Assembly: GCA_965208835.1 (NCBI GenBank)
Contig: OZ242358.1
Span: 3,776,001 to 3,840,000 of the forward strand
DNA: 64,000 nt
Direction: 5' to 3'
Origin: Candidatus Latescibacterota bacterium
GTDB lineage: Bacteria > Latescibacterota > UBA2968 > GCA-2709665
The stretch's first letter is position 1; every line of letters starts with the position of its first letter. A model generated the notes under the pieces. It saw only the letters and a program-made list of their open reading frames with translations, searched no databases and had not been told where the DNA came from. This document shows positions 2,444 to 63,726 of the stretch, one piece after another. Position numbers and translations under genes: made by a program.

Positions 2444-4498
2444 GTGGTTTTGGCAATCGAACCCAAAGACCCTAGAGAAGAGCAGGAACAGTACGAAAAC
2501 ATCATGCCGGTCGATGCGCCGTTCGAAGATGGCTTCAATATGAAGACCCTGTGGGCGACGCTTTTTGTGGGCCTGGTGATGCTGCCCGGTGCAATCTATC
2601 TTGGCCTGGTTACCGGACAGAACATGGCGGGTGCGTCCGAATGGGTGACCATCATCCTCTTCCTGGAAATCGCCAAAAGGTCCTTCGTGAGGCTGAAGAC
2701 GCAGGAGGTCCTGGTCATCTACTGGGTTGCCGGCGGATTGCTGGGCGTGGGCGTCCGGTTGGGCAGCGCGGCACTGGTGTATGGAGGGCCGTTCGGCGGA
2801 TTGATCTGGGATCAATACCTGATCCAGTCCCCGGCCGCCAGAGGGCTTGCGGATTTCATACCGGACTGGGTGGTTCCCCGGATCAGCGAACATCCGGAGA
2901 TTTACGCGGAACGTACGTTCCTGCACGCCGCGTGGTTGAAGCCGATCGGCATCCTCGTCGCATTGACACTGTTAAGCAATACCGCGAGACTGTCGCTTGG
3001 GTACGTGATGTTTCGCATTACGAGCGACATCGAACGGTTGCCGTTTCCGCTGGCTCCAGTCCAGGCCCGCGGGGCCACCGCGCTCGCCGAAACGTCGGCC
3101 AAACAGGAAGGCTGGAGATGGCGGGTATTCAGTACAGGAGCGTGTATCGGATTGGTCTGGGGCCTTCTGTATGTCGTGGTCCCGACACTGTCCAGCATAT
3201 TCCTGACCGATACGGTCCAGATCCTTCCCATTCCCTGGATCGATTTCACGGAACAGATCAAGACCATCCTGCCCGCTGCGCTGTTTGGAATAGCAACCGA
3301 CCTGGGCCACCTGATCGTCGGGTTCGTTTTGCCGTTCTGGGTGGTTATCGGGTCGTTCGCCGGCGCCGTCCTTGGAAACCTGGTTGTCAATCCGTTTCTG
3401 TACAGATGGGAAATCCTGGACCGCTGGTCCGCGGGCATGACGGCGATCCCGACTTCGATCTCCAACCAGTTCGACTTCTGGCTCAGCTTTGGGATCGGCA
3501 CTTCGTTCGTCATCGCGTTCACTGGATTCTACCAGGTGTTTCGGGTGCTTATGGAACAGCGCCGTCAGAAGCAGCAAACGGGGCATCATACGTCCGGTAT
3601 CGACCTCGAGGACCTTCCGAAGGGCCGGTCGGATATGAAGATGATTTACCCTATTCTGTTCTGGGGCGCCGCCACATTGGGCTTTATCGTGATGTGCCAG
3701 ATGCTGGTTCCCGAGTTCCACTGGGGCTGGGTCGTGTTCTTCGGACTCATTTACACGCCGATTTCTTCTTATATCGGCGCGCGCATGATCGGCCTGACGG
3801 GAAGCCCGTACGGGGCGAGTATCCCCTATTTACGGGAAGCGGGAATACTTCTTTCCGGATACAAGGGCGTCGCGGTCTGGTTCGCCCCCCTTCCGCTGCA
3901 CGACCACGGCCTGGCCGTGCCTACCTACAAACAGATGGAACTCACGAAAACGAAATTTGTCAGTTACGTGAAATTGACCGCGGTGACCATGGTGGTCATT
4001 TTCATCTTCAGCTTCATCTTCTGGGAATTCATCTGGCGACTTGGACCCATTCCCTCATCCAGCTATTACTATGTGCAGACATTCTGGCCATACGACGCCA
4101 CAATGACCACGATGTGGCTAAAGTCGACAATGCCGGACCTCGAAGGGCAAGGGACCGTCGGCGTCGAACTCCTCAAAGATATTATCAAACCGGAACTCAT
4201 CGGCGCCGGATTCGCCGTTGGCGGCCTCATGTATCTCATTCTGGCCGCGCTGAAAGCGCCTACGCTGTTCTTTTTCGGCTTCGTGGGCTCGCTTGCAACA
4301 TGGCCGCATTTCGTGATCCTGCAGTTTGCCGGCGCACTGCTTGGACGTTTCTATTTCGCCAGGCGTTTCGGCGAATCCAAGTGGCGGGCGTACGCACCCA
4401 TTCTGCTGGCAGGATATTACTGTGGCATGGGGCTCATCGGGATGACTTCGGTTTCCGTTGTGCTGATTTCAAAGGCCGTCTCCCAGGTCGTATTCTAG
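2444..4498 (+). CDS. OPT-like (peptide transporter family) integral membrane protein
   Basis: 684 aa, very hydrophobic, 'ERLPFPLA' motif; GGAGG RBS before the GTG start; follows the FtsX-like gene. Confidence 0.6.
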   Translation: MVLAIEPKDPREEQEQYENIMPVDAPFEDGFNMKTLWATLFVGLVMLPGAIYLGLVTGQNMAGASEWVTIILFLEIAKRSFVRLKTQEVLVIYWVAGGLLGVGVRLGSAALVYGGPFGGLIWDQYLIQSPAARGLADFIPDWVVPRISEHPEIYAERTFLHAAWLKPIGILVALTLLSNTARLSLGYVMFRITSDIERLPFPLAPVQARGATALAETSAKQEGWRWRVFSTGACIGLVWGLLYVVVPTLSSIFLTDTVQILPIPWIDFTEQIKTILPAALFGIATDLGHLIVGFVLPFWVVIGSFAGAVLGNLVVNPFLYRWEILDRWSAGMTAIPTSISNQFDFWLSFGIGTSFVIAFTGFYQVFRVLMEQRRQKQQTGHHTSGIDLEDLPKGRSDMKMIYPILFWGAATLGFIVMCQMLVPEFHWGWVVFFGLIYTPISSYIGARMIGLTGSPYGASIPYLREAGILLSGYKGVAVWFAPLPLHDHGLAVPTYKQMELTKTKFVSYVKLTAVTMVVIFIFSFIFWEFIWRLGPIPSSSYYYVQTFWPYDATMTTMWLKSTMPDLEGQGTVGVELLKDIIKPELIGAGFAVGGLMYLILAALKAPTLFFFGFVGSLATWPHFVILQFAGALLGRFYFARRFGESKWRAYAPILLAGYYCGMGLIGMTSVSVVLISKAVSQVVF

Positions 4499-4652
4499 TG
4501 TTCTGTCCCAAAAATATCTAACCATTCAGCCGCCGATTCATCCCGTCTCGCGGCGTTGCCTTCCCTCGCCGACCTTCCGCAGGTCGGAGGCGCCTTGCGA
4601 GCCGGGCGACTCGACAGCTGAATTTAGGCAACCTATTTCCGGGACAGAACAC
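4498..4652 (-). mobile_element. MITE-like element, family E copy 1
   Basis: Terminal inverted repeat GTGTTCTGTCCC-AA-AAATA / TATTT-CC-GGGACAGAACAC; begins within the TAG stop of the OPT-like gene; second copy at 30612-30773. Confidence 0.75.
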
Positions 4653-4655
4653 TGG

Positions 4656-4754
4656 CAGTCCTTTGATAAAGTCGCTCTGTAGGCGAGGCCGCGCAATGCA
4701 GTATTTCGACCGCAAGGGCCGGCCGCAGCCCGGATGGGCTCTTTCAACGGGCTG
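4656..4754 (+). mobile_element. MITE-like element, family A, internally deleted copy
   Basis: Ends CAGTCCTTTGATAAAG...CTTTCAACGGGCTG match the other family A copies; directly abuts the family E copy. Confidence 0.75.
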
Positions 4755-4883
4755 CCAGCCTGGAAGCCTGTGTTGTATGACGGAACGCCGCCCGGATCCC
4801 GGCTGTCTAAGGAACACCCAAGACGCCTGATCCGGGCCGAATTTCATCCGCCTGGACCGGATTTCAACCACAGGGAGGTTTCA

Positions 4884-5357
4884 ATGAAGCGGGGCGAAAG
4901 AATTACGGGACTTTCGCTGATTGCCTTTGTCGTATTGGCGCTTACCATGGATGCAGCGGCACAGCCCGATCGCAGGGGCGGACGGGAACGGGGACGGCGC
5001 GGGGGCGCGGCCCGGATGCGAATGATGTTGCCCCTGGAGCAGACGTTGAGCTTTCTGGCTTTCGACGAAAAGATAGCGTTGAAGGACGACCAACTGATTA
5101 AGATCAGAAAAGCTCTAATGGAGATTCATGGAAGCCGGGCCGAACTGCTGAAAGAAATGCGGAACGGCGCCGACCGGCAGCAAATCATGGAGAAGCTCGG
5201 CCGCCTTCGCAGTTCAATGTTCGAGAAGGTCAAGGCGGTGCTGGACGACAAACAGGATGAAGTTCTGGATGGCTATCTGGAGAGGATGCGGCGAGGGTTT
5301 CAACGTGGACGCGGCGGCGGCCGGCGGAGTGGCGGTCCGCCGGGCGGCGGTGTTTGA
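4884..5357 (+). CDS. Secreted helical hypothetical protein (Spy/CpxP-like architecture)
   Basis: GGAGG RBS then ATG 4884; signal peptide ending AAA-Q; Gly/Arg-rich ends around a charged helical core. Confidence 0.6.
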   Translation: MKRGERITGLSLIAFVVLALTMDAAAQPDRRGGRERGRRGGAARMRMMLPLEQTLSFLAFDEKIALKDDQLIKIRKALMEIHGSRAELLKEMRNGADRQQIMEKLGRLRSSMFEKVKAVLDDKQDEVLDGYLERMRRGFQRGRGGGRRSGGPPGGGV

Positions 5358-5363
5358 GGTCTT

Positions 5364-6752
5364 GTGATGAATCTCCAGGAGGTCGGCCAAAGACTCGAGA
5401 AACCGTTTACCTTTGCCGTGGTGGGTGACACGCATTTTCTGCATTCAAAATTTGGCCGACCGACGGGCGACACCGGCGGTTCTTTTCGTCCCTTGCAGAT
5501 TGACCAGTATCTTGAGAGCGTTCGATATGTCCTGATGCCGATGATGGCCTCTCTAAAGGAAGTTTCTCCTGAATTCCTGGTAATCACCGGTGATCTGGTG
5601 GAGGGCCATCAAGACGTCGAACTCGCGGTCGATGAGATCAAGGAAGGGCTGGAATTCTTCGAGGGATATGGGATTCCGCTTCTGTTTGCGTGCGGAAACA
5701 GGGACAGGGTCGAGGCATTTGACAGCGTTGTTCTTCCGTATTTGGGCCGCTGGCTGGGCAGGACACCCCGGGAGCGGTTTTTCTTTCTGGACGTCGCCGG
5801 CTGCCGGCTCATATTCCTCGACACCCCCGCCTGGAAACGGAATGGCGCACAACGGGAATGGCTGGAACTCGCATTGAATGACCGGGAGGCCGCGGGGATT
5901 GATCGAACGTTTCTGTTCGGACATCATCCTGTCTGGCCGCTGGCAAGGGCCTTTTTCACCAACATCGACCTCCATCTCGATCTGCCGGAAATACTGCAGG
6001 AGCATCCTGTAGACGCTTTTTTTTGTGGGCATACCCACAACCAGAACGTGTTACTTCACCGTACGGATGGACGCCCGGTTCTGCAATGCATGTGCGCGTC
6101 CATCGGACTTTCCAGTGAGATGCCAACGCCGCTGGACCGGGTACAGGACCTGATACCGTATCCCCAGGACGTGCTGACCTGTTGGCCAGGCTACCTCGAA
6201 AATACGGCACCAGGATGGTTTATCGTTCACGTCGGTCGGACCTCGGTCGAAGCGTCATGGCACCACTTGAATCGAGGTGTGGAAACACGACTCGTCTGGC
6301 AACGCCCGGGAGATCTCTCGGCATTCGAAAAGATGGACCATCCGCCGGATGCCCGGTTGATTTACGACGACCTGAATCATATCCGGCGTGCTTCCCTTCG
6401 GTTCTGCGGATGGCATGCCCTGCGCCAGGACAAAGAGGTATTCCTCAATGGCGTGCTGGTCGGCAGCCTCCCTCCCGCGAACGACTATGCGCCGATCCGG
6501 ATGGATTTGCCAGCGAAATGCCTTGAACATCTGCGTATGGAAAACAGGCTCGAGATCCAGGTTCCCCGGAACGAGGCATGTACGCTGGGCAACTTTATAC
6601 TCGAAGCGGTCTTGCCGGGTGGACGATTTGTGCGCACACGTCCAACAGGCGAGATATTTACCTGGTCCGACCGGTGGGGCGCGTGGAATTCAAGCTCGCT
6701 GATGAAAATGAAGCCGGGACGACCGGCAACAACATTATTGTGTTTCCAATGA
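5364..6752 (+). CDS. Calcineurin-like metallophosphoesterase with a C-terminal beta domain
   Basis: Motifs GDTH, TGDLV, GNRD, GHHP and GHTH. Confidence 0.8.
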   Translation: MMNLQEVGQRLEKPFTFAVVGDTHFLHSKFGRPTGDTGGSFRPLQIDQYLESVRYVLMPMMASLKEVSPEFLVITGDLVEGHQDVELAVDEIKEGLEFFEGYGIPLLFACGNRDRVEAFDSVVLPYLGRWLGRTPRERFFFLDVAGCRLIFLDTPAWKRNGAQREWLELALNDREAAGIDRTFLFGHHPVWPLARAFFTNIDLHLDLPEILQEHPVDAFFCGHTHNQNVLLHRTDGRPVLQCMCASIGLSSEMPTPLDRVQDLIPYPQDVLTCWPGYLENTAPGWFIVHVGRTSVEASWHHLNRGVETRLVWQRPGDLSAFEKMDHPPDARLIYDDLNHIRRASLRFCGWHALRQDKEVFLNGVLVGSLPPANDYAPIRMDLPAKCLEHLRMENRLEIQVPRNEACTLGNFILEAVLPGGRFVRTRPTGEIFTWSDRWGAWNSSSLMKMKPGRPATTLLCFQ

Positions 6753-6784
6753 GTACAACATAGACCAGGTTTTCGAAAATCTCA

Positions 6785-8863
6785 ATGAAAAAACAGCGAT
6801 TTGCAAACAGGTTGTTAAACGAGACCAGTCCCTATCTGCTACAACACGCACATAACCCGGTGGACTGGTATCCGTGGGGCGACGAGGCCTTTGAACTTGC
6901 GAAGAAAGCAGACCGTCCCATTTTTCTGAGTATCGGATATTCGGCCTGTCACTGGTGTCACGTGATGGAGAGGGAATCGTTTGAAAATGAAGCCATCGCA
7001 GCTGTGATGAACCAATTCTTCGTGAACGTCAAGGTAGACCGCGAAGAACGGCCGGATGTGGACGAGATTTACATGAATGCGGTACAGATGATGACCGGCG
7101 CCGGCGGATGGCCGATGAGCGTGTTTCTCACACCCGACGGAACACCGTTTTACGGCGGCACCTATTTCCCTCCCGACAGCAGATACGGCCGCCCCGGATT
7201 TCCGGACGTACTCCGGTCAGTGGCAACGCATTACCGCGACAACAGGGGCAAAGTGGGAGAGGCTGCCGAACGCCTGATGGCCGGATTGAAACGGCTGACC
7301 GACCTGCGAAACCTGGATGGAGCGTTGACGGGAACTTTGTTTTCTGAAGGACATTCGCAGATCGCCCGTAATTTTGACTGGGAGAATGGAGGATTCGGAT
7401 CGCAGCCGAAGTTTCCCGGCACCATGAATCTGTCGGTCTTTCTGCGGGAATTCGAGAAAACCGGAAATCGCAATGCAATGGATATGGTACTTCTAACCCT
7501 GCGGAAGATGGCGCGGGGAGGGATATACGATCATTTGGGCGGCGGATTTCACCGGTACTCCGTTGACCATCGCTGGCTGGTCCCCCACTTCGAGAAGATG
7601 CTTTATGACAATGCCCTGTTGACCGTACTCTATCTGGAAGCCTTTCAACACACCGGAGAACCACTGTTTCGGCAGATTGTGCAGGAAACACTGTCATACG
7701 TCATTCGCGAGATGACCGACCCGCAGGGCGGATTCTATTCCACTCAGGACGCGGACAGCGAAGGGGAGGAGGGCAGGTTTTTCGTCTGGGACCAGGAGGA
7801 GGTGTGCGCATTACTGGGGCAGGAAGAAGGACGGTTGTTTTGCCGGTACTACGATGTGCGTCCGGAGGGTAATTTTGAACACGGTAAGAGCATCTTGAAT
7901 ATACCGGTTGAAGTGTCAGAATTGGCCCGTTTCCTGGATGTGGACCCGGAGCGCCTGGACGATGTGATTCAGCGCGGACGGAAGATATTGGCAGATGTCC
8001 GCGAGAACAGGATCAAGCCGGAGCGGGACGATAAAATCCAGGTGAGCTGGAACGGTCTCATGATCTCGGCTCTTGCTCGCGCGTATCAGGTTCTCGGTCG
8101 ATCGGAATATCTGGCAGCGGCGCAGAACTCGGCCGATTTCATACTCCGGAATATGCAGACGGAATCCGGCCATCTGCTGCACACTTACAACACCGGGAGG
8201 GCCCGGTTCCCCGGTTACCAGGACGATTACGCCTTCTTCAGCAACGGACTGCTCGACCTCTACGAAGCCTCCTTCGATCCGCGCTGGCTGAATGCGGCGG
8301 AGGCACTCACAGAGACGATGCTCCTCGAATTCTGGGATCCGGAGCAGGGCGGTTTCTATTTCACAGGTCGGGCGAATGAAAAACTGATCGTACGCTCAAA
8401 GAATCCGTACGACAACGCAATACCATCCGGAAATTCGATGGCCGTTATGTCGCTGATGCGTCTGGGTACGATTCTCGACCGACCGGACCTGTGGCAGAAG
8501 GCGGAGCAGACCCTGAAGCTGTTCGAACCGATGCTCCGAGAGATGCCATCCGGTTTCGGCCAGATGCTCTGCGGTCTGGACACCTTCACCAGGCGTCCGA
8601 TTGAGATCGTTTTGGTGGGCGACCCGGAGGATTCAGCGACGAAAGATCTCCTGAAGACCGCTTACGGACGCCTGCCATCCAGCCGGGTGATCGTTCTCGC
8701 GGATCCGGACAAGAGGGAAGATCTGGCGCGGCGCATTCCATTACTTTCGGACAAGAAGGCAATTAATGGAAGACCAACCGCGTACGTGTGCAGAAATTCG
8801 GTCTGTTCCGCACCAGTAACATCAGAAACCCAACTGCATGCATTGCTGCGGAATCCATCGTGA
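6785..8863 (+). CDS. Thioredoxin-domain protein, YyaL/SSP411 family
   Basis: [30 protein letters not shown] and [11 protein letters not shown]. Confidence 0.93.
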
Positions 8864-8913
8864 GGGGACGCGATTGCGCCAATCGCAGACACAAGTTGGT
8901 TAAAACGCCCCAA

Positions 8914-9146
8914 GAAGCTGTCCTAAGATTCCCAGCGGTCTTCGCACGGCTGCAAAAGCGCCGGTCGGCGTTGGTCAAATCCACCCGTCTTATGAGATCG
9001 AGACTGCGCTTGCTCGCCTCTCATAGCCGGATTTTCCCGTCGGCGCTGCGCGCCCCTCGTGCCTCGGCACTACGCGCCCCTCGTGCCTCTTAACCGCAAC
9101 TTTTTCGCTCGCGCTCGGGAACTCACCGGTAATTTTAAGCAACTTC
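8914..9146 (-). mobile_element. MITE-like element, family B
   Basis: Ends GAAGCTGTCCTAAGATT...AATTTTAAGCAACTTC; flanks CAA/TAA; internal tandem duplication of CGCGCCCCTCGTGCCTC. Confidence 0.8.
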
Positions 9147-9161
9147 TAACAGGAGGATGTT

Positions 9162-9707
9162 ATGGCATCGGTATTGGTGGTAGGAGATGGTCCCGGTGGA
9201 CTGAGCGCGGCTCTGTTCCTGGCCAAGAACGGCATGGATGTTGTGGTGTTCGGGCAGAATACAACCCCCATGCATAAAGCCATGCTCTACAATTACCTGG
9301 GTATTCCCGAATTGACCGGGAGCGAGTTTCAACGCATTTCCCGGGATCAGGTCGCGGCTCAGGGTGCACGAATTGAGGACGTGCAGGTCGCCGGTATCGA
9401 AAAGACGCAAGCCGGTTTTACATTGACCGCGGAGGGCGGGGCCACCCACAACGGTGACTATCTGATTCTGGCGGCCGGAACCAATGTGAAGCTTGGCGTG
9501 AGTATCGGTCTTGAGAGAGGTCCGGACGGGCTGGGATGCGACAGGGACGGTCGTACGGCAGTAGACGGACTCTACGTAGTGGGATGGAGTACGCGGCTGC
9601 GGAAAACGCAGGCGATTATTTCCGCCGGTCAGGGTGCGTCCGCCGCGCTCGATATTCTATCGATCGAGGCAGGCGAGGACGTACACGATTTCGACGTTGT
9701 GTCATGA
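9162..9707 (+). CDS. Short FAD-dependent oxidoreductase (thioredoxin-reductase-like FAD domain only)
   Basis: GDGPGGLSAA dinucleotide-binding motif, 'T.VDGLYVVG' and 'QAIISAGQG'; AGGAGG RBS. Confidence 0.8.
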   Translation: MASVLVVGDGPGGLSAALFLAKNGMDVVVFGQNTTPMHKAMLYNYLGIPELTGSEFQRISRDQVAAQGARIEDVQVAGIEKTQAGFTLTAEGGATHNGDYLILAAGTNVKLGVSIGLERGPDGLGCDRDGRTAVDGLYVVGWSTRLRKTQAIISAGQGASAALDILSIEAGEDVHDFDVVS

Positions 9708-9801
9708 AACATACCTGAAGATGCAGCATCGGGACATGGCGTTCCGTCGCGTAAACTGCTCGCCATTCGACCGCCGGTGGCAGGACGATTCCTTCGGGAG
9801 G

Positions 9802-10371
9802 CTAATAGTACCTGGGTGTCTTTCTGGGGGCAGCCGGTTTAGGAGGCGCCTCACTTTCAGGAATGCCGTGGCTTTCAATGATGCCACGAACCACGTGTAC
9901 CGGTAGGCCCATTCTAACGGCCAACGCCATTGAATCACTCGGACGCGCGTCCATTTTGAACGTCGTTCCATCCGGACCCTGCAGGGTAAGTACGGCGAAA
10001 TACGTACTCCCCAGCCCCCCTTCTTTCAGTGGGCGAAGTTCGTCGATTACAATGGATCGGAGGCGGACGCCGGCCCCTTCCAGAACGTTGTGGAATAAAT
10101 CGTGGGTGAACGGACGAGGAAACGTCTCGTTCTTCAGTTTGCGCCAGATTGCCATCGCTTCGCAGGGACCGATCCAGATAGGAAGAAGCCGTGCGGTCTC
10201 GTTGTTACGTAGAAAAACGATGTATTGATCTTCCGAATCCCGCCCGACCTGATGGACTTCGGTCTTGACCAGGTCCTTTTCCGACGGATACGCCGCTGGC
10301 GCGAGGACGCCGCTCAGACACAGGCATAAAGCGCAGGAGTAAATCACCGCAGAACGGCATCTATCGTGCAT
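9802..10371 (-). CDS. Bifunctional nuclease (DUF151) family protein with a predicted signal peptide
   Basis: LPIWIG..EA, RPFTHDL and DARPSD motifs; AAGGA RBS before ATG 10371; hydrophobic N-terminus. Confidence 0.85.
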   Translation of the reverse strand: MHDRCRSAVIYSCALCLCLSGVLAPAAYPSEKDLVKTEVHQVGRDSEDQYIVFLRNNETARLLPIWIGPCEAMAIWRKLKNETFPRPFTHDLFHNVLEGAGVRLRSIVIDELRPLKEGGLGSTYFAVLTLQGPDGTTFKMDARPSDSMALAVRMGLPVHVVRGIIESHGIPESEAPPKPAAPRKTPRYY

Positions 10372-10485
10372 CTCAGTTCCTTTCTGTGTATGAAGCCGGC
10401 GCTGACTGACATGATTCCGTTGCGTTCCGGGAATATACGCCGGCGCCAATCACGGGGCAATTCGAATTTCCGGCATAGGGACTGA

Positions 10486-10719
10486 AGAGCTGTCTTAAAA
10501 TTCCCAGCGGTCTTCGCACGGCTGCAAAAGCGCCGTGCGGCGTTGGTCAAACCCACTCGTCTTACGAGATCGAGGCTGCGCTTGCTCGCCTCTCATAGGC
10601 GGGTTTTCCCGTCGGAGCCGCGCGCCCCTCGTGCCTCGGCACTACGCGCCCCTCGCGCCTCATAGCCGCCACTTTTTCGCTCGTGCTCGGGAACTCACCG
10701 GTCAATTTAAAACAGCTTC
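10486..10719 (-). mobile_element. MITE-like element, family B
   Basis: Near-identical to 8914-9146; ends AGAGCTGTCTTAAAA...TTTAAAACAGCTTC; flanks TGA/CGA. Confidence 0.8.
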
Positions 10720-10732
10720 CGAGGCTTGTGGG

Positions 10733-10761
10733 TTGACAAGCTGCGGTGAATGTGCTATCTT
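10733..10761 (+). promoter_or_regulatory. Sigma70-type promoter of the yicC-gmk-rpoZ-coaBC operon
   Basis: TTGACA-17bp-TATCTT with an extended -10 TG. Confidence 0.65.
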
Positions 10762-10799
10762 TTTCCGTTTCAGAATTTTACACGATTTGTGCTGTGTAG

Positions 10800-10959
10800 C
10801 AGTCCGTTGATACTGTCGCTCTGCAGGCGAGGGCGAGACGTCGTGGCCGAAGACAAGGCGCGCGACCCAGTCCCATCCAGCGATTCGGCGAGGATGCGCA
10901 ACGCAGGCCTTTGGCCACGAGAGCCGGCCGCAGCCCGGATGGGCTTTTTCGCCGGGCTG
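10800..10959 (+). mobile_element. MITE-like element, family A, in the yicC 5' leader
   Basis: CAGTCCGTTGATA...TTTTTCGCCGGGCTG; flanks GTAG/CTAT; homologous to 17997-18156. Confidence 0.8.
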
Positions 10960-10977
10960 CTATATCCAGGAGAACGC

Positions 10978-11856
10978 ATGGTTGTCAGCATGACGGGTTT
11001 CGGGAGGGGAGAAGTCGAAACAGACGGCTACCGGGCGTCGGTGGAACTGCGGTCTGTCAACGGGCGCTACGGCGAGGTATCCGTCCATTTGCCCAGACAC
11101 CTGTCTCCCCTGGAACAACGGATCAAGGAGCTCGTGCTTTCAGTTTTCTCCCGGGGCCACATTCGTGTCTCGGTGAGTGTGAGCGGCGACTCGCTTGGAC
11201 AGGGCATCCCGGTTCTGAATGAACGTGTCTTTGAGGGATATCGAGACGGACTTGCGCGGTTGCAGACTCGTTTGGGCGCTTCAAATGCACCCGATCCCCT
11301 GCAGGTCGCGCTGATGCCGAGTGTATTCGAAATCGAAACCAGCCCACCGGATCTGGAAGCAGTCTGGAAGGTGGTTGCGCCGGCCTGTGAACGGGCCGTC
11401 GCTCAATGCCATTCGATGCGGGAGACAGAGGGAAAACAGCTGGCAGCGGATCTCGTCCAGCGGGTTCATCAACTCGAGGATCTGGTGGGGCAAATACAGG
11501 AATTGGCACCCGGTCAGGTCGCGTCCACCCGCAGGAGGCTCGACGAGAAACTCCGGGAACTCATCGCCCCTGAGAGTGTCGACCAGAACCGTCTCCTCAC
11601 GGAAATTGCCCTGCTCTCGGAGCGCATGGACATTACCGAGGAAACGGTCCGCTTCCACAGTCACAACGAACAGTTTCTGAAGACGCTGGGTCGCGACGAG
11701 CCGGTCGGCAGGCGTCTGAATTTTCTTCTCCAGGAGATGCTCCGCGAGGCAAACACAATCGGCTCCAAAGCAGGCGACACCGGAATTGCGCATCTGGTGG
11801 TTGGGATCAAGGAAGAGATCGAGAAGCTCAGAGAGCAGGTGCAGAATATAGAATAG
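10978..11856 (+). CDS. yicC: YicC/YloC family endoribonuclease
   Basis: SMTGFGR, ELRSVN.RY, DITEETVR, GRRLNFLLQEM.REANTIGSK and EKLREQVQNIE. Confidence 0.95.
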   Translation: MVVSMTGFGRGEVETDGYRASVELRSVNGRYGEVSVHLPRHLSPLEQRIKELVLSVFSRGHIRVSVSVSGDSLGQGIPVLNERVFEGYRDGLARLQTRLGASNAPDPLQVALMPSVFEIETSPPDLEAVWKVVAPACERAVAQCHSMRETEGKQLAADLVQRVHQLEDLVGQIQELAPGQVASTRRRLDEKLRELIAPESVDQNRLLTEIALLSERMDITEETVRFHSHNEQFLKTLGRDEPVGRRLNFLLQEMLREANTIGSKAGDTGIAHLVVGIKEEIEKLREQVQNIE

Positions 11857-11876
11857 CAGCGTGATCGGTTCCACAG

Positions 11877-12542
11877 ATGGAAAAACCGTTCGGAATTGAG
11901 GCCCTGCAAGACCGCCTCGTTAGCAATCCCGCGTCGTTCGTCGTGGTACTGTCGGGTCCTGCAGGCGCAGGAAAGACAACCATCCGCCAGGGACTGCTGG
12001 AATGCGACAACGCGTTGCGGGTATGTGTGACCACCACCACACGCGCCAAACGCCTTAACGAAGTGGACGGCGTCGACTACCATTTCGTCTCGGAAGATGC
12101 GTTTCGTGCGGGGCTGAAACAGAGGTGTTTTTTCGAATGGGCGGAGGTGTACGGCTTTCTTTACGGCGCAACCTTCGAGGCGATCGCGCACGCGCTTGGA
12201 CAAGGCGGCGTTGTGCTGCTCGTGGCAGACGTGCAGGGCGCGGCGGTGTGGAAGCGCTTGCTCAGGAAACGATGCGTCAGCGTGTTCGTGCTGCCGCCAT
12301 CGGTCAAGGTGCTTGAGGAGCGCCTGGGAGGGCGTAAGACCGAAGAGGGTGGCGTCTTAAAGCGCAGGCTGGAGAATGCGAGGTCTGAACTTGCTAAAGC
12401 CGTGGAGTTCGATTATCTCGTCGTCAATGGGGAGCTTGATCGCGCCATATCCGATGTTCAGGAACTGATTCGCGTTGAAAGGCGCAGGCCATGGCGAACG
12501 CCCGACTTAATTGATGAATTCGGGCGCCGGAGTGTGCCTTAG
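11877..12542 (+). CDS. gmk: Guanylate kinase
   Basis: SGPAGAGKTT P-loop, TTR..R.NEVDGVDYHFVS and EWAEVYG. Confidence 0.95.
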   Translation: MEKPFGIEALQDRLVSNPASFVVVLSGPAGAGKTTIRQGLLECDNALRVCVTTTTRAKRLNEVDGVDYHFVSEDAFRAGLKQRCFFEWAEVYGFLYGATFEAIAHALGQGGVVLLVADVQGAAVWKRLLRKRCVSVFVLPPSVKVLEERLGGRKTEEGGVLKRRLENARSELAKAVEFDYLVVNGELDRAISDVQELIRVERRRPWRTPDLIDEFGRRSVP

Positions 12543-12649
12543 AATGTATTTGCGACGGGCAATCAGATCGTACAAATCAGTTGCACGTAAAACGACTCGA
12601 TTGCGATCACGGGCAACCCTGCCCCACACAGACGGAGGATTGGATCCAA

Positions 12650-12910
12650 ATGTCACGGATTTTCTTTCTCGAAGAGATCAGCAGCGACGAAATTAACCCG
12701 TATGAGGCGGTCAGCGCCGCGTCTAGAGAGTCCCGCCGGATCAACCAGGCCCGGATGGCGAGAGACGTTTCAGGAGAGGCGGAAAAACCCACGACGCTAT
12801 CGCTGGATCGTCTCTCCACGGGAAAAGTAAAAGTTGCGTACGACACCGATGAGGAAATGGAAGCGGAAGATGGCAATGCCGTCGAAAATGAGGATCCTGC
12901 TGGGAATTAG
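12650..12910 (+). CDS. rpoZ: RNA polymerase omega subunit
   Basis: Between gmk and coaBC; NPYEAV.AASRESRRIN and KPTTLSL; GGAGG RBS. Confidence 0.8.
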   Translation: MSRIFFLEEISSDEINPYEAVSAASRESRRINQARMARDVSGEAEKPTTLSLDRLSTGKVKVAYDTDEEMEAEDGNAVENEDPAGN

Positions 12911-14081: not shown

Positions 14082-14716
14082 AGACCCTGAAAGCCGTGCG
14101 AACATTTGTTGAGGCGCAGGCGGAATTTGGTCTGACGGAGTTCAGGCGCGCCGGCGCCGGTGCGAAGCTTGCCGATTTTCACGAATCGATCCGTGACTGC
14201 CGACTGTGCGGGCTATGCGAGCAGCGGCGCAGCGTTGTCTTCGGCAGCGGCAATCCGGATGCGGGACTGATGTTTGTCGGTGAGGCGCCAGGGGCGGAAG
14301 AAGACAGGACGGGGCTGCCGTTCGTCGGAGCAGCCGGCGCATTGCTCACCCGCATGATCGAAGCCATCGGTTTCAAGCGTGAAGAGGTCTATATTGCCAA
14401 CGTTATCAAATGCAGGCCGCCGGGTAACCGGGACCCGCGACCGGAGGAAATAGAAACGTGCAAGCCCTTTCTCGAACGGCAGATTGAGCACATACAACCG
14501 GCTGCGATCTGCGCCCTCGGTCTATTCGCCGCGCAGACCCTGTTGGAGACCTGTGAACCGATGGGCAGTCTCCGGGGTCGGATCTTTTCGTATCGCGGCA
14601 TCCATCTGATCCCCACCTATCATCCGGCCGCACTCCTGCGAAACCGGCATTGGAAACGTCCCGCCTGGGAGGATCTGCAGTTGCTCAGGCGCGTTTACGA
14701 TAACGCCGCCGGCTAA
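14042..14716 (+). CDS. Family 4 uracil-DNA glycosylase (Fe-S)
   Basis: Cxx[14 protein letters not shown] and YHPAA. Confidence 0.92.
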
Positions 14717-14772
14717 CAACCGCGCGTTCCCGACCCCTCGTTTGGACAAGCTCGTACTCATCGCGTGATCTT

Positions 14773-16430: not shown

Positions 16431-16461
16431 AACCTTGAATCTATCAAACCGAGGAATGAAA

Positions 16462-17996: not shown

Positions 17997-18156
17997 CAGT
18001 CCGTTGATAAAGTCGCTCTGCAGGCGAGGCCGAGCCATTGTGGCCGAAGACAAGGCGCGCGACCGAGTCCCATCCTGCGATTCGGCGAGGGAGCGCAACG
18101 CAGTATTTCGACCGCAAGGGCCGGCCGCAGCCCGGATGGACTTTTTCAACGGGCTG
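17997..18156 (+). mobile_element. MITE-like element, family A, inserted at the DAC stop codon
   Basis: Inverted repeats CAGTCCGTTGATAAAGTC / GACTTTTTCAACGGGCTG; exact TTAG duplication at 17993-96 and 18157-60. Confidence 0.88.
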
Positions 18157-18783: not shown

Positions 18784-18895
18784 TGTTCTCTATTTCGGTA
18801 CCGGACATGGAGTGAGCACGCCTGTCAAGGGGTCGGCGAAGGGATATCGATTGGCCATCGACGGATATTGAAACGCGGGCATTTCGACAAGCTCA

Positions 18896-20266
18896 ATGAC
18901 CACGTTTCAGCCAGACGGGATGAATCGGCGGTCGAATGGTGAGGAATTTTTGGGACAGGACACCCGGCAAAGCAGATTCTTGATTTCCGGTATCCTGATC
19001 GGCGTGTGTGCAGTCGGCATATTGGCACTGGGTGAATCCCGGTACAGGATGCCGCTTTTTTTTGGTCTGTTCGGGCTCTGGATGGTCTTCTACCTGGTGG
19101 CTGTGTGGCATTGTACAGGGGCTTCACTGAAGACTGTGGTGCTGTTTGGCCTTCTGTTCCGCGTCATTCTGGTTTTTTCCGCGCCCGGCCTATCGGACGA
19201 CGCCTACCGGTACCTGTGGGACGGACGCGTGCAGGCCTGGGGGATAAATCCCTACGTGTATCCACCTGCTTCCGAAGCGCTCGCCGACCTCAAAGACGAC
19301 GAGGTCTTCTCCCAGGTAAACCATCCCGAAGTACCCACCATCTACCCCCCTTTGGCTCAGATGTTCTTCCGCATGTGTTATCTCATTCATCCGTCGATCT
19401 GGACCATTAAGATCGGCCTCGCTCTTTTCGATCTGTTGACGGCGTGGTTTCTTCTGGGATTGATTCGGCTATACGATCAGCATCCGGGACAGTTGCTTAT
19501 ATACCTCTGGCACCCCCTGTTGCTGGTGGAGGTGGCGGGCAACGGCCACATCGATGCGCTGGGTGTTTCCTTCATGGTTATTGCGTTCCTCTATCTTCAG
19601 GTTGGAGGTTACGCGAGGGCCTTCGCCGCGCTGGCACTCTCCTTTTTGAGCAAGTTCTTTGCCATCTGCCTGGTTCCGGTCTTCTTGCGCTGGATCTGCG
19701 GGAGGATTTCCCGTAGGACCGAAGGGCGTTTGCCGGCTTGCTTCAGACCACAGGCCGTATGGTCTGTGCTGATTTTCACGGTGACGATAGCGGCCGGGTA
19801 CCTGCCCTACCTGGAAGCCGGAGAGGCACTGTTCACAGGGTTCCTCACGTATGCCGAACACTGGAGCTTCAATGCACCGGCCTTTGACATCCTCAGTTAC
19901 GTGCTGGGTAACCCGCAGTGGGCACGCACGGTCATTGCGGTCGCGTTTGCCATGGCGGTAATTCTCGTCACGTTCAACAGGATGCCGCCGATTCAGGCAG
20001 GTTTCTTCCTCGTCGGCGCCTTCCTGTTGCTTACGCCGACATTGCACCCATGGTATGCGATCTGGATGGTACCCTTTATGGTCTTCTACAGGCAACCGGC
20101 ATGGCTGGTCTTTACAGGTCTGATCGCAATTTCGTATCACGTCCTGATCAGATATGCGAGCGAAGGGATATGGGAGGAGGCGGTCTGGGTGAAGGCTGTT
20201 CTATTCGGCGGGTTCGCGCTTGTCTGGGCATTCGAATGGATAAAGAAGCGACGCGCCGAGACCTGA
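18896..20266 (+). CDS. GT-C fold membrane glycosyltransferase (GT87/DUF2029-like)
   Basis: SDDAYRYLWDG..QAWGINPY, TIYPP, GNGHID and HPWY; many TM helices; start uncertain. Confidence 0.78.
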   Translation: MTTFQPDGMNRRSNGEEFLGQDTRQSRFLISGILIGVCAVGILALGESRYRMPLFFGLFGLWMVFYLVAVWHCTGASLKTVVLFGLLFRVILVFSAPGLSDDAYRYLWDGRVQAWGINPYVYPPASEALADLKDDEVFSQVNHPEVPTIYPPLAQMFFRMCYLIHPSIWTIKIGLALFDLLTAWFLLGLIRLYDQHPGQLLIYLWHPLLLVEVAGNGHIDALGVSFMVIAFLYLQVGGYARAFAALALSFLSKFFAICLVPVFLRWICGRISRRTEGRLPACFRPQAVWSVLIFTVTIAAGYLPYLEAGEALFTGFLTYAEHWSFNAPAFDILSYVLGNPQWARTVIAVAFAMAVILVTFNRMPPIQAGFFLVGAFLLLTPTLHPWYAIWMVPFMVFYRQPAWLVFTGLIAISYHVLIRYASEGIWEEAVWVKAVLFGGFALVWAFEWIKKRRAET

Positions 20267-30574: not shown

Positions 30575-30898
30575 CAGTCCGTTGACAAAGTCGCTCTGCA
30601 GGCGAGGCAGGGTGTCCCGTCCCGGAAATATGTCACCATTCATCCGCTGATTCATCCCGTCTTGCGGCGTTGCCTTCGCTCGGTGACCGTGAGCAGGTCA
30701 CCTTGCTCAGGCGTCTTGCCAGCCGGGCGACTCGGCGTCCGAATTTCGGCGATCTATTTCCGGGACAGAACACTTGCCATTGTGGCCGAAGACAAGGCGC
30801 GCAACCGAGTCCCATCCTGCGATTCGGCGAGGGCGCGCAACGCCGTATTTCGACCGCAAGGGCCGGCCGTAGCCCGGATGGGCTTTTTCAACGGGCTG
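30575..30898 (+). mobile_element. MITE-like element, family A, carrying a nested family E element
   Basis: Family A ends with an exact TTAG duplication (30571-74 and 30899-902); interrupted at 30612-30773. Confidence 0.88.
30612..30773 (-). mobile_element. MITE-like element, family E copy 2 (nested)
   Basis: GTGTCCCGTCCCGGAAATA...TATTTCCGGGACAGAACAC; homologous to 4498-4652. Confidence 0.8.
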
Positions 30899-45504: not shown

Positions 45505-46257
45505 ATGGCAGGTACGATCAAACTCGAGGTTTGCGAGAGCAGCGCCGACGTGGCGGTCAAAGCGTCGGAGATCATCGCAAGTCTGATCCGCGCGACGCCG
45601 GATGCGGCGATCGGTCTGGCCACGGGATCCACACCTGAACAGACCTATGCCAGACTCGCTGACCTGCATCGCAGCGAGGGCCTCCGATTCGCCCGCGTCA
45701 CCTCCTTCAATCTGGACGAATACTGGGGCCTGGATGGCGATCACAATCAGAGCTACCGTTATTTTATGGACGACCGCCTTTTTCGGAAAGTCGACATTCG
45801 ACCCTGGAATACCCACGTCCTGAGCGGTACTGCCGCCAATCCGGATCTGGAGTGCAGGGCATTCGAGACGAAAATCCTTGCGGCCGGCGGTATCGACCTG
45901 TGGTTGCTCGGTATCGGCACCAACGGTCATATCGCATTCAACGAGCCGGGCAGCCCCGTGGACAGCCGCACGCGACTCGTCAACCTTGCGCCGAGTACGA
46001 TTGCGGCGAACAGCGACGGCCGTTTTTTCAAGGATGCCGCCAGCGTCCCTCGATTCGCCCTTTCGGCCGGAATCGGTACCATTCGAGAGGCGCGGCGTCT
46101 TCTTTTGCTGGCCACCGGGTCCGGGAAGGCCGATGCCATTGCGCAGGCCCTGGAAGGACCGCCCTCAACGGACTGCCCGGCCAGCCTGCTGCAGAGCCAT
46201 CCGGATTGTACGTTCATCGTGGACCGCGAAGCGGCTTCCAGGCTTGAGTCCGCTTAG
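45505..46257 (+). CDS. nagB: Glucosamine-6-phosphate deaminase
   Basis: GLATGSTP, FNLDEY, LGIGTNGHIAFNEPGS and PASLLQ.H. Confidence 0.95.
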   Translation: MAGTIKLEVCESSADVAVKASEIIASLIRATPDAAIGLATGSTPEQTYARLADLHRSEGLRFARVTSFNLDEYWGLDGDHNQSYRYFMDDRLFRKVDIRPWNTHVLSGTAANPDLECRAFETKILAAGGIDLWLLGIGTNGHIAFNEPGSPVDSRTRLVNLAPSTIAANSDGRFFKDAASVPRFALSAGIGTIREARRLLLLATGSGKADAIAQALEGPPSTDCPASLLQSHPDCTFIVDREAASRLESA

Positions 46258-46418
46258 AAGTTGTTTTAAAATTACCGGTGAGTTCCCGAGCGCGAGCGAA
46301 AAAGTGTCGGTCAAGGCGGGAAAATCCGCCCATATTTGTCTATACGGGCGGGTTTGACCAACGCTGACCGACGCTTTTGCAGCCGCGCGAATACCGCTGG
46401 GAATTTTGAGACAGCTTC
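46257..46418 (+). mobile_element. MITE-like element, family B short variant, at the nagB stop
   Basis: GAAGTTGTTTTAAAATT...AATTTTGAGACAGCTTC; exact TTA duplication (46254-56 and 46419-21); its first G completes the nagB TAG. Confidence 0.88.
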
Positions 46419-50887: not shown

Positions 50888-50937
50888 CCTCAAGTCGAAA
50901 AGAGACAACGGTCAAATTGGCCAAAAAAAGCCTGAAT

Positions 50938-51068
50938 GCGGGTAGAGGGTAGAGGGAAGACGGTAGAAGAAACCCTTGCCCGATCCTTTATTCCTTCTTG
51001 CCTCCGGCAGGAGAAGGGACTCCACAAGGCAGGAAATCTCTCCCGTCTACCGTCTCCCGTCTCCCCGC
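50938..51068. repeat. Inverted arrays of 7-bp tandem repeats forming a long hairpin
   Basis: GGGTAGA GGGTAGA GGGAAGA CGGTAGA ... TCTCCCG TCTACCG TCTCCCG TCTCCCC. Confidence 0.75.
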
Positions 51069-51106
51069 TTCCTGGGGGATGGGAGGAGAGGTCACGAACA
51101 CGTCCA

Positions 51107-51203
51107 GTGACCTGGTGTATCCTGGTAATCCGCCGTTTAATCGCCTTTATTTACAAGCACATATTTGAATTAACGTCCCCGAAGACTTACGAATCAAGGT
51201 TCA
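51107..51203 (+). repeat. Dispersed repeat, family C copy 2
   Basis: Matches 16335-16430; ends just before the AAGGAG RBS of the next gene. Confidence 0.85.
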
Positions 51204-51221
51204 TTGAAAGGAGCCGCTTCA

Positions 51222-52137: not shown

Positions 52138-52297
52138 CAGTCCGTTGATAAAGTCGCTCTGCAGGCGAGGCCGAGCCATTGTGGTCGAAGACAAGGCGCG
52201 CAACCGAGTCCCATCGAGCGATTCGGCGAGGGCGCGCAACGCAGTATTTCGACCGCAAGGGCCGGCCATAGCCCGGATGGGCTTTTTCAACGGGCTG
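52138..52297 (+). mobile_element. MITE-like element, family A, between convergent genes
   Basis: Near-identical to 17997-18156; its right end abuts the TAA stop of the nitroreductase. Confidence 0.85.
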
Positions 52298-63264: not shown

Positions 63265-63402
63265 TTGCCAAAAGCCTTTCGAAACAACGGGTGAACACGG
63301 AGTTTGCCATTGCCCTGACATAGCGGGAAAGGGCAGATCGCCCTGCCGATGGTACGCCGTCCGGGCGAGAAAACACGGGCACGGCGCCCGATCCGCCGGG
63401 AA

Positions 63403-63431
63403 AATATGAAGCCCGCGGGAATCGATGTCAA
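63403..63431 (-). promoter_or_regulatory. Sigma70-type promoter for the leftward operon
   Basis: Minus strand TTGACA-17bp-CATATT. Confidence 0.5.
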
Positions 63432-63478
63432 GGTGAAATGAACTTCCCGGATTCGGGACAATGCCCGGTTTATCCGCC

Positions 63479-63507
63479 TTGATTTTGAAGGATGGATCTT
63501 CTATTTT
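63479..63507 (+). promoter_or_regulatory. Candidate promoter for kbl
   Basis: TTGATT-17bp-TATTTT immediately before the family B element. Confidence 0.35.
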
Positions 63508-63516
63508 GGTGTCTCA

Positions 63517-63726
63517 GAAGTTGTTTTAAAATTACCGGTGAGTTCCCGAGCACAAGCGAAAAAGCGGCGGTTATGAGGCGCGAGGGGCGCGCAGCGCCGA
63601 CGGGAGAATCCGCCTATGAGAGGCGAGCAAGCGCAGCCTCGATCTCGTAGGACGGGTGGATTTGACCAACGCCGACCGGCACTTTTGCAGCCGTGCGAAG
63701 ACCGCTGGGAATTTTAAGACAGCTTC
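63517..63726 (+). mobile_element. MITE-like element, family B
   Basis: GAAGTTGTTTTAAAATT...AATTTTAAGACAGCTTC; exact TCA duplication (63514-16 and 63727-29). Confidence 0.88.

Follow-up and report, generated by a model that had tools for sequence, protein, structure and literature searches.

How did three families of short inverted-repeat elements with unrelated ends come to carry the same asymmetric motif at their center, and what is this motif for? The question arises from a 64,000-nucleotide stretch of DNA from Candidatus Latescibacterota (here called the window), which contains copies of families A, B, and E. An initial annotation had noted that the terminal repeats of the three families are unrelated, had placed AAGGC and AACGC strings within one copy of each, and had suggested that the common hairpin could be a mobile structured-RNA module with a protein partner. 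The strings are present in A, B, and E at the positions given there, and the consensus ends show no likeness among the families. The reading that we favor, to which we assign a probability of about one-half, is that A, B, and E are selfish miniature inverted-repeat elements (MITEs) with a recombined common core, the propagation of which depends on one folded strand.

Three MITE families in one bacterial genus

Genome-wide BLAST with the family consensuses retrieved 93 full copies of A, 106 of B, and 60 of E from the 5.18-Mb genome (183, 165, and 91 HSPs, respectively). The elements are 160 (A), 162 (B), and 162 (E) nt long and have no coding capacity. Each is a near-perfect foldback over the full element, and terminal inverted repeats are present, the rod alignments opening with 17 to 20 paired end positions. 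Identical 4-bp flanks border 34 of 92 copies of A, every one of the form NTAN, with the YTAR-like CTAA and TTAG as the commonest, and identical 3-bp flanks, every one TNA, border 49 of 106 copies of B. When the flanks were recounted from anchored ends, they were identical in 84 of 379 cases for A and 101 of 204 for B. Of the target types first proposed (TTAG, TNA, and a TA/CTAG-like type), those of A and B stand as clear duplications. In E, TA is the top dinucleotide at the left and the right end alike (34 and 35 cases among 92) but stands on both sides in just 12 of 92, not above the product of the single-side frequencies, so that these counts do not establish a duplication. Identical flanks of fixed length set A and B apart from systems that make no target duplication. 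Together, the terminal repeats, flank duplications (in A and B), copy number, and filled and empty orthologous sites identify A, B, and E as genuine multicopy MITEs, nonautonomous and transposase dependent, from a single genus of uncultured bacteria. The copies in the window are listed in Table 1.

Table 1. Elements of families A, B, and E, their derivatives, and their motifs in the window, with covariance model (CM) scores
Feature	Position	Strand	Details
E copy, minority core type	4498..4652	-	Motif strand minus; motif 4551-4596; core 4541-4607; CM R1 71.2 bits
A deletion derivative, about 99 nt, without core	4656..4754	+	Deletion between two GGCGAGG direct repeats
Long B variant, 233 nt	8914..9146	-	AACGC side kept, AAGGC lost
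Second long B variant	10486..10718	-	Orthologous in G011 and G004; apex indels
A copy	10800..10965	+	Absent from G011 orthologous site; CM 23.0 bits
A reference copy, TTAG flanks	17997..18156	+	Core 18041-18113; CM 27.2 bits
A reference motifs	CAAGGCG 18051-18057; CAACGCAG 18096-18103	+	AAGGC at 18052; AACGCAG ends 18103
Truncated element: E end, different core	18820..18967	+	–
Composite: A with E nested in left arm	30575..30898	+	E = 30612-30773, motif strand minus
B reference copy, TTA flanks	46257..46418	+	CM 20.4 bits
B reference motifs	CAAGGCG 46312-46318; CAACGCTG 46359-46366	+	AAGGC at 46313; AACGCTG from 46360
A copy	52138..52297	+	CM 25.9 bits
B copy, longer center, 210 nt	63517..63726	+	–

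The 3-bp TNA of B and the 4-bp YTAR-like sequence of A are presumably targets of IS5-family subgroups, and the TA of E is presumably that of the IS630/Tc1 group. In these target patterns, which are the sole basis of the assignment, the three families agree with Tourist-like and Stowaway-like MITEs and with relatives of IS5 and IS630. They differ from IS5/IS630-type elements in that no transposase gene was found bounded by their ends. In G000, no transposase lies between end pairs 400 to 4,000 nt apart, there is no PF01609 gene, and the two single-copy DDE_3 genes have no matching ends. In the other genomes of the genus, 10 sampled PF01609 loci (of more than 180 matches) are likewise without A, B, or E ends.

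Each of the 14 other genomes of the genus contains family A, whereas none of 7 genomes from other genera of the same taxonomic family does. At window position 20279, G006 and G009 have an insertion where the site is empty in G000. The families are at least 95% identical between species whose genes share 79 to 90% identity, and their arms are nearly identical in two other genera. This high identity across species and genera may hint at a recent horizontal spread among uncultured bacteria. Public records with A, B, and E are labeled Candidatus Latescibacterota and, in some cases, Gemmatimonadota. Plasmid and phage collections gave no match for A, B, or E or for short A. The initial annotation had allowed for a match to an element already catalogued; the Rfam search of the 64 kb returned none at the gathering score, and the two matches obtained with E values up to 5 over positions 4400 to 18300 do not fall inside a MITE. 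The literature searched held nothing joining Latescibacter with miniature inverted-repeat elements, and broader queries on MITEs yielded just reviews.

A common junction and its probable origin

CAAGGCG starts at consensus position 55 in A and 56 in B and E, and AACGY starts at positions 101, 103, and 104 of elements of 160, 162, and 162 nt. Both motifs are intact in 80 of 93 copies of A, 50 of 60 of E, and 77 of 106 of B. The AACGCCG first described for E is that of the window copy, a minority type, whereas AACGTAG is the consensus of E. A genome-wide count of the pattern CAAGGCG-N30-50-SAACGYMG gave 165 matches, compared with 7 for the reversed control, and the 165 divide into 81 in A, 43 in B, 35 in E, and 6 others. 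The latter comprise four variants of A or E and two chance-like matches, and no fourth motif-bearing family was found in G000. In every family, conservation is highest over the block of 12 motif positions, with identities of 0.977, 0.946, and 0.973 against 0.85 to 0.96 elsewhere, so that the motif is better conserved than the surrounding stem, as the initial annotation had anticipated, and diverges about half as much as the remaining element.

The three families are not equally close. The local alignment of A with E scores 30, a value attained by none of 500 shuffles (17.3 ± 2.5), and the match sits at an equal position in both elements, delimiting a 54-nt apical hairpin. By this sequence comparison, the apical hairpins of A and E are homologous over about 54 to 70 nt. 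Alignments of B with A or E do not rise above shuffles (440 and 357 of 500, respectively, reach the score), and what B has in common with them is the junction only, that is, two short motifs and a bulge layout. The idea of one module in three families thus stands for A and E, while for B it narrows to the motifs and the arrangement of bulges. The junction of B may be convergent; chance is less likely.

The junction begins with a bulged AA in the 5′ strand and a GC helix of 2 to 3 bp, continues with a bulged AAC in the 3′ strand and a short helix, and ends with a tandem G·A. An ungapped, anchored pairing table displays the same layout of helix, G·A, and helix in A, B, and E. A covariance model, as proposed at the outset, was built from 16 E cores. 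Its top seven matches in 128 kb are two E, four A, and one B, all on the motif strand, so that a model made from E alone recovers the standard B copy and each of the four full-length A copies in the window, and the next match scores 14 bits. Among B loci of other genomes, which like the E loci were chosen by a pattern that requires the motif, 21 of 25 score at least 15 bits. Subfamilies of A fail to keep one tandem G·A, with counts of 90 for G·A, 31 for A·C, 16 for A·A, and 11 for G-C. Mutual information within A was computed without gaps; with gaps, one deletion subfamily dominates the signal. A kink-turn was ruled out by eye, as the G·A pairs lie on the 5′ side of the 3-nt bulge, at a distance of 2 to 4 bp.

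Recurrence by chance of short GC-rich words within GC-rich palindromes would fit the shuffle results for B, but it is hardly credible given the excess of the pattern over its control, the agreement of the motif positions within 1 to 3 nt across three families, and the clear gap between CM matches and noise. The motif could instead be read as duplex DNA: CAAGGCG and CAACGC are direct repeats about 47 bp apart, to which a host architectural protein or transposase cofactor would bind, bringing the two ends together by bending the 160-bp element. The equal position in three families of equal length, the conservation of the motif, and the CGAG-type words (11 on one strand and 1 on the opposite strand) would suit such a site, and a central IHF site is described for the 155-bp Correia element (PMC2229807). 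This proposal is nevertheless improbable, because it leaves unexplained both the whole-rod excess of G·U relative to A·C and of purine relative to pyrimidine mismatches and the twofold strand difference of the consensus fold, which are described below.

The repeats are visibly mosaic. Another core also occurs together with E ends, and four other repeat clusters have one further module in common. Both cores are present in the nested composite of the window (CM scores of 83.4 bits for E and 22.6 bits for A), and one orthologous site holds A in G006 and A plus E in G009. Given this mosaicism, the common core was most likely passed between families through nesting and recombination. The module itself does not appear to be mobile, contrary to what had been proposed: it was never found standing alone, and only 2 of 318 BLAST matches fall outside its own families.

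Constraint on the fold of one strand

The consensus folds of the motif strand are about twofold more stable than those of the opposite strand, with RNAalifold energies of −74.3 versus −31.8 kcal/mol for B, −65.7 versus −38.5 kcal/mol for E, and −41.3 versus −19.9 kcal/mol for A. The single-sequence minimum free energy is also lower on the motif strand in all three families, with RNA as well as DNA parameters. The mismatches of the three consensus rods had been thought to be mostly G-T/G-U, but the purine-purine class leads with 31 (22 of them G·A), followed by G·T with 17, pyrimidine-pyrimidine with 8, and A·C with 7. The unpaired positions of the fold are purine rich.

The comparison of variants by their frequency separates two classes. 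Among whole-rod mismatch states common to several copies, G·U plus purine·purine states favor the motif strand by 237 to 111, whereas private mutations show no bias in the same comparison (177 versus 165). Shared states count 44 G·U against 27 A·C and 60 R·R against 17 Y·Y, compared with singleton states of 56 against 67 and 121 against 98 (Fisher tests of shared versus singleton, P = 0.037 for G·U/A·C and P = 0.0004 for R·R/Y·Y). Both biases rise with variant frequency, and the strand bias is equal in the terminal inverted repeats, arms, and core. The G-U strand bias suspected from the window copies is therefore present in shared states and absent from private ones. In A alone, the bias of G·U over A·C is weak (4 versus 3 covarying pairs and 85 versus 98 cells).

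Covariation points in the same direction. Where a pair has two Watson-Crick states, the intermediate is G·U dominant in 24 cases and A·C dominant in 4. In B, both partners have changed in 10 pairs, compared with 4.2 ± 1.1 for shuffles (0 of 500) and 2 to 6 for slid controls; in E, this holds for 8 pairs, compared with 5.0 ± 1.2 (5 of 500) and 0 to 2. Neither control takes account of phylogeny, and the significance of the shuffles is overstated because the copies are related to one another. Pair-preserving double transversions are also seen, such as C-G to G-C in five to six E rows. These data support constraint on the single-stranded fold of one given strand. The covariation expected by the initial annotation is thus found in B and E, and its proposal of selection on a single-stranded structure agrees with the fold energies, compensatory pairs, and G·U intermediates; that the selection would be special to the module is not borne out.

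The same data bear on a purely historical account, in which the core is common by descent or recombination, the rods are foldback products, and the asymmetry goes back to the founders or to strand-biased mutation in a small number of master copies, folding itself being under no selection. Mosaicism is general among these repeats, the A and E cores are homologous, the copies decay neutrally, and related sequences can beat shuffle controls without structure, all of which this account would accommodate. We nonetheless consider it rather unlikely, as two distinct biases agree (transitions toward G·U and transversions toward purine·purine), both increase with variant frequency and recur in three families with unrelated arms, double transversions that keep the pair exist, and slid controls fall below the real pairing.

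The level of selection and the proposed role of the folded strand

Elements lie in the same orientation as neighboring genes in 87 cases and in the opposite orientation in 78, which is no bias, with genes called by a crude caller. Orientation relative to replication is also unbiased, and one orthologous site carries its element in opposite orientations in two species. Singleton states give no sign of purifying selection on single copies. The search for internal promoters returned four promoter-like sites in 13.9 kb, compared with 5.5 expected, just one of which touches a MITE end. A search for RNA runs covering window positions 16500 to 19500 returned none. That each copy is a maintained functional RNA gene serving the host is not supported, given the unbiased private mutations, the lack of orientation bias, the opposite orientations at one site, and a module that is never found alone.

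In a broader form of this idea, the core would be a functional module of structured RNA that has a protein partner, is carried by several MITE types, and is either useful to the host or acts in trans as an RNA of the elements. This broader form would account for the strand-specific fold with its G·U, tandem G·A, and purine-rich unpaired positions, for the slower divergence of the 12 motif positions, and for a CM that picks up the core across families. Beyond the objections to a host gene, it is countered by the lack of a consistent promoter-like site inside the elements, the extension of the fold constraint to the terminal repeats, and the lack of an Rfam match; moreover, a trans-acting RNA would put no selection on the variant that encodes it. 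We regard this idea as quite unlikely.

The lineages of A, B, and E that multiplied retain the fold of one strand along the entire element by way of G·U and purine·purine mismatches and compensatory changes. The absence of orientation bias, the orthologous site with opposite orientations, and the unbiased private mutations suggest that the folded single strand would act in cis for the propagation of the element itself and not for the host in each copy. The folded form may be single-stranded DNA exposed at transposition or replication, or it may be a transcript. Within this fold, a protein, either a transposase or a host factor, would read the conserved bulged junction. Counting against this reading, no autonomous partner with matching ends was found in G000 or at the 10 sampled loci of relatives, and no TIR/TSD (DDE-type) transposition mechanism is known to require a folded single strand. 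A more specific proposal is that a strand-specific folded strand, of DNA or RNA, licenses TIR/TSD elements or is the route of their propagation, with the junction as the putative docking site of one protein that serves the elements of different transposases; this proposal is tentative, and we hold it to be doubtful.

Known systems share some of these properties. IS200/IS605-derived palindromic elements and integron attC sites have one strand that folds with functionally important bulged bases and another that folds worse, and they have neither terminal inverted repeats nor target duplications. A, B, and E resemble them in a strand-specific fold with bulges and differ in that A and B clearly duplicate their target and that the two words are direct and not inverted repeats, by which an attC-like site was ruled out. 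BIMEs and RIMEs, which are mosaic intergenic repeats, join modules in varying arrangements and are made of REP-type palindromes that have no terminal repeats or target duplications; the families described here are likewise modular but possess both. Correia/NEMIS elements of Neisseria, ERIC, RUP, and CIR are described as 100 to 200 bp long, with terminal inverted repeats, target duplications, and transcripts that form long stem-loops, and some such bacterial MITEs hold an internal motif of unknown origin, for example an IHF or methylase site (PMC2229807, PMC10969869). As far as these accounts describe them, they are like A, B, and E in size, terminal repeats, duplications, and long-hairpin fold. 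The sequences of A, B, and E are unrelated to those of Correia/NEMIS and other MITEs, the Rfam, plasmid, and phage searches having been blank, and, unlike the Correia/NEMIS kind, they combine one core junction across three families of different ends with a strand-specific fold constraint. The literature searched held no report of families with different ends that have one core junction and a frequency-dependent, strand-specific constraint on the fold.

Bacterial MITEs fold as long hairpins, and, to our knowledge, whether such a fold is selected, and at which level, is mostly unknown in the field. The contrast between private and propagated variants separates two levels, with the fold filtered at multiplication and not during the residence of a copy in the genome. 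Elements of three families, which differ in their ends and duplications, converge on one length and one central junction. If the docking proposal is true, several MITE families would share one host or helper factor, and their propagation would have a requirement so far undescribed among DDE-type elements. If the single-stranded form is truly needed for mobilization, this would change the view of how such elements move and would name a testable cis element.

Three repeat families with unrelated ends

The genome containing the window (G000) is a single contig of 5,180,620 bases with 59.5% G+C. Self-BLAST of the window against it revealed 13 repeated stretches, and repeat grouping placed the window's copies in families. 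The strings quoted in the initial annotation stand at the coordinates it gave, and the unrelated ends that it had described for families A, B, and E were borne out by the consensus sequences. BLAST of G000 with consensus sequences built from 46 (A), 45 (E), and 54 (B) full copies retrieved 93 full copies among 183 HSPs for A, 60 among 91 for E, and 106 among 165 for B.

The flanks of A are identical over 4 bp in 34 of 92 copies, every one NTAN, with CTAA and TTAG most frequent, and those of B over 3 bp in 49 of 106 copies, every one TNA; anchored end pairs of B have identical flanks in 101 of 204 cases. TA is the most frequent neighbor of E on each side (34/92 and 35/92) and stands on both sides in only 12/92, so that a target duplication in E is putative at most. 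We take the duplication patterns of A and B to be those of IS5-family subgroups and the flank pattern of E to be that of the IS630/Tc1 group. A, B, and E are new MITE families of a familiar sort.

The suggestion that such hairpins might already be catalogued found no support in Rfam or in plasmid and phage collections, which returned no matches, and the literature collection searched held no paper linking these bacteria with MITEs. Two reviews (PMC2229807, PMC10969869) describe bacterial MITEs of 100 to 200 bp whose transcripts form long stem-loops. Some of these contain an internal motif whose origin is unknown; examples are an IHF site (Correia element, 155 bp) and a methylase site (CIR).

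Properties of the three families. Identities are means to the consensus over G000 copies, uncorrected for kinship; energies are in kcal/mol, motif strand versus other strand, with pairs in parentheses
Property	A	B	E
Consensus length (nt)	160	162	162
5' start of consensus	CAGTCCGTTGA	GAAGCTGTTTTAAAA	GTGTCCTGTCCC
Identity, motif (12 positions)	0.977	0.973	0.946
Identity, outer 20+20 nt	0.949	0.939	0.904
Identity, other arm	0.887	0.956	0.916
Identity, between words	0.916	0.867	0.851
Single-sequence MFE, RNA parameters	-84.2 vs -72.4	-88.7 vs -64.8	-98.5 vs -72.9
Single-sequence MFE, DNA parameters	-40.4 vs -37.0	-45.5 vs -35.1	-52.8 vs -41.7
RNAalifold, copies	24 (foreign ends in 4 rows spoil the outer stem on both strands)	24	27
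RNAalifold, energy	-41.3 (39) vs -19.9 (28)	-74.3 (59) vs -31.8 (34)	-65.7 (55) vs -38.5 (41)

A central junction common to the three families

Aligned to its own reverse complement, each consensus forms a rod, a long foldback of the whole element, with 76 to 77 aligned positions and 54 to 57 Watson-Crick pairs. The word CAAGGCG starts at consensus position 55 in A and 56 in the other two, and the word AACGY starts at 101, 103, and 104; the strand reading both is the motif strand. The module that the initial annotation assigned to all three families holds as sequence for A and E, since a 54-nt alignment links A to the minus strand of E, with the match at the same position of both elements (score of 30 versus 17.3 ± 2.5 in dinucleotide shuffles, reached by 0/500). 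For B it holds for the two words and the layout; none of the remaining consensus pairs, in either orientation, rose above its own shuffles in local alignment. Anchoring an ungapped pairing table on the two words reveals this common layout, from the outside inward: on the 5' strand an unpaired AA(G), then a 2- to 3-bp GC helix, an AAC bulge on the 3' strand, a 2- to 4-bp helix of family-specific sequence (GCGC/GCGC for A, GCCT/AGGC for one E type, and GG/CC for B), and a tandem G·A. In A and E only, the stem goes on with 2 bp and another tandem G·A.

A covariance model of 16 E cores only, the core being the apical hairpin around the words (24 pairs; effective number, 1.57), was run unfiltered on both window strands. 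The window's two E copies ranked on top (83 and 71 bits), followed by the four full A copies (27.2 to 22.6 bits; E values of 0.001 to 0.011) and the standard B copy in seventh place (20.4 bits; E value of 0.033). All seven matches lie on the motif strand, and noise begins at 14 bits. The same model scored at least 15 bits on the motif strand at 21 of 25 B loci from three other genomes, which were chosen by a pattern requiring the two words, so that the words add to the score. The two-word pattern itself matches 165 times in G000 (81 A, 43 B, 35 E, and 6 other) versus 7 for the reversed control, 27 to 136 times versus 2 to 10 in other genomes of the genus, and 32 times versus 0 in G019, from another genus, where the matches are B-like; G016, from a second other genus, has three E-like copies. 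In mean identity to the consensus, the motif is modestly better kept than the surrounding element. Only 2 of 318 BLAST matches show the core free of its own families, i.e., it never stands alone. One central junction within families that differ in ends and target duplications is the first of two less ordinary features of these elements.

Mobility and exchange of parts

A, B, and E are mobile now or were until recently. Family A is present in 14/14 other genomes of the genus, in 0/7 genomes from other genera of the same family, and, as a weak match, in 1/19 genomes of the next family; the public records carrying it are, according to their labels, Candidatus Latescibacterota or Gemmatimonadota MAGs. 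Its copies are 95 to 99% identical between species, versus 79 to 90% for flanking genes (genus versus window). The A copy that is inverted in G004 is identical to its ortholog at 151/160 positions in reverse complement and 113/160 in the same sense, which would reflect two insertions at the site or an inversion of the palindromic element in situ.

No helper transposase with A, B, or E ends was found in G000 or in sampled loci of the genus. G000 has no PF01609 genes, its two single-copy DDE_3 genes lack matching ends, and its end pairs 400 to 4,000 nt apart enclose ordinary genes; ten PF01609 loci from other genomes of the genus, a small sample of >180 matches, lack A, B, and E ends.

In G016 and G019, B and E show almost no change in the arms and the two words but differ at the apex. 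Loci with near-identical arms are L115, L118, L121, and L124 in G019 and L117, L120, and L123 in G016. Four G019 loci have the same 57 to 76 nt left of B, where several contigs begin exactly, which makes B part of a larger repeat in G019.

Repeated intergenic DNA of G000 comprises 786 segments in 36 clusters. The composite of A and E is multicopy in its own right, with 11 end pairs at 300 to 399 nt. At another site, G006 has a plain A and G009 a composite with the same A variants; the junction differs from that of a plain TA insertion and is suggestive of conversion between copies. E ends are also found with a different core, a module of which recurs in three further clusters. In three A copies of G007 (L128, L140, and L141), another short palindrome (GCCTGTCTGC...GCAGGCAGGC) takes the place of the right arm or breaks it up, perhaps as one more small inserted element. 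The observed mosaics indicate that module exchange is common among these repeats, and it is the simplest route to the hairpin common to A and E. The repeat of the largest cluster (206/786 segments), which does not form TIR rods, might represent a promoter or leader that is mobile.

Elements and sites in the window
Position	Feature	Observation
4656-4754	~99-nt A derivative without core	Deletion ends are two GGCGAGG direct repeats; 3 nt from an E copy
8914-9146	233-nt B variant	Direct orientation with 10486-10718, bracketing ORFs 9162-9707 and 9802-10449; neither variant in G002
10486-10718	233-nt B variant	Orthologs in G011 and G004 differ by apical indels only
10800-10965	A copy	Absent from orthologous site in G011
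16231-16438	Largest-cluster copy	Stops right at ORF start 16435; absent from orthologous site in G011 and G004
17997-18156	A copy	L113:9341-9500 (G004) has same flanks and TTAG, opposite orientation
18820-18967	Truncated element, E end	Other core with CCTTCGACAAGCTCAG-type module common to three other repeat clusters; full standard E at the matching site in G004
~20279	Empty site	A in G006; A with nested E in G009
30575-30898	Composite	E nested at fixed point of A's left arm
50884-51205	Largest-cluster copy	Stops right at ORF start 51204

Strand-specific folding and the level of constraint

Covariation, which the initial annotation had proposed as a check, was counted over all distinct copies to hand (167 A, 86 E, and 132 B). 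Pairs with compensatory change numbered 27 in A versus 14.1 ± 1.9 in shuffles (0/300), 29 in B versus 15.2 ± 2.0 (0/300), and 18 in E versus 13.7 ± 1.8 (4/300). With both sides changed, B (24 rows) has 10 pairs versus 4.2 ± 1.1 (0/500; slid controls, 2 to 6) and E (26 distinct rows) has 8 versus 5.0 ± 1.2 (5/500; slid controls, 0 to 2), although kin sequences may exceed shuffles even without structure. Compensatory pairs exceed shuffles in all three families; the count of further pair types in E does not (223/500). Among the 28 pairs with two Watson-Crick states, the intermediate is mainly G·U in 24 and mainly A·C in 4.

The motif strand folds more stably in every family, both as a single sequence and in RNAalifold with copies from several genomes. 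For single sequences this is so with RNA and DNA parameters alike, and RNA and single-stranded DNA are therefore indistinguishable. In the consensus rods, G·A mismatches number 22, G·T 17, G·G 7, and A·A 2, compared with 7 A·C and 8 pyrimidine mismatches.

Mutations that are each confined to one G000 copy comprise 42 G·T versus 54 A·C. Over all copies, singleton mismatch states are G·U 56, A·C 67, purine·purine 121, and pyrimidine·pyrimidine 98; the respective counts are 53, 30, 80, and 37 for states in 2 to 4 copies and 44, 27, 60, and 17 for states in at least 5. Singletons differ from the last class by Fisher's test at a P value of 0.037 for G·U/A·C and 0.0004 for the purine and pyrimidine mismatches. 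The G·U strand bias described earlier is thus a property of shared states and not of singletons. Shared states are biased alike in the outer 20 positions (55 versus 22), arms (89 versus 45), and core (93 versus 44), whereas singletons are flat (53 versus 57, 63 versus 52, and 61 versus 56, respectively). Filtering thus acts on which variants multiply, and it reads the whole rod rather than the module. However, the G·U bias is weak in family A by itself, and one of its tandem G·A motifs gives way to other states in subfamilies (G·A 90, A·C 31, A·A 16, and G-C 11).

The structured-RNA module with a protein partner envisaged in the initial annotation, when read as one that serves the host, is unsupported by these copy-level data. 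With gene calls from a crude in-house caller (3,656 genes; 83.6% coding), the motif strand is sense in 87 and antisense in 78 copies between codirectional genes (P = 0.53). Divergent gene pairs bracket 67 copies and convergent pairs 22, against a share of 12.6% of all gene junctions for each of these two contexts. With respect to replication, the motif strand falls on the leading strand in 116 copies and on the lagging strand in 143 (P = 0.11), and a promoter scan found no consistent internal site.

A strand-specific fold retained by the lineages that multiply is the second less ordinary feature of these elements. We know of no mechanism behind a role of the folded single strand in propagation. 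The reading that we prefer, with a probability of about one half, is that the folded single strand would act in cis in the element's own propagation.
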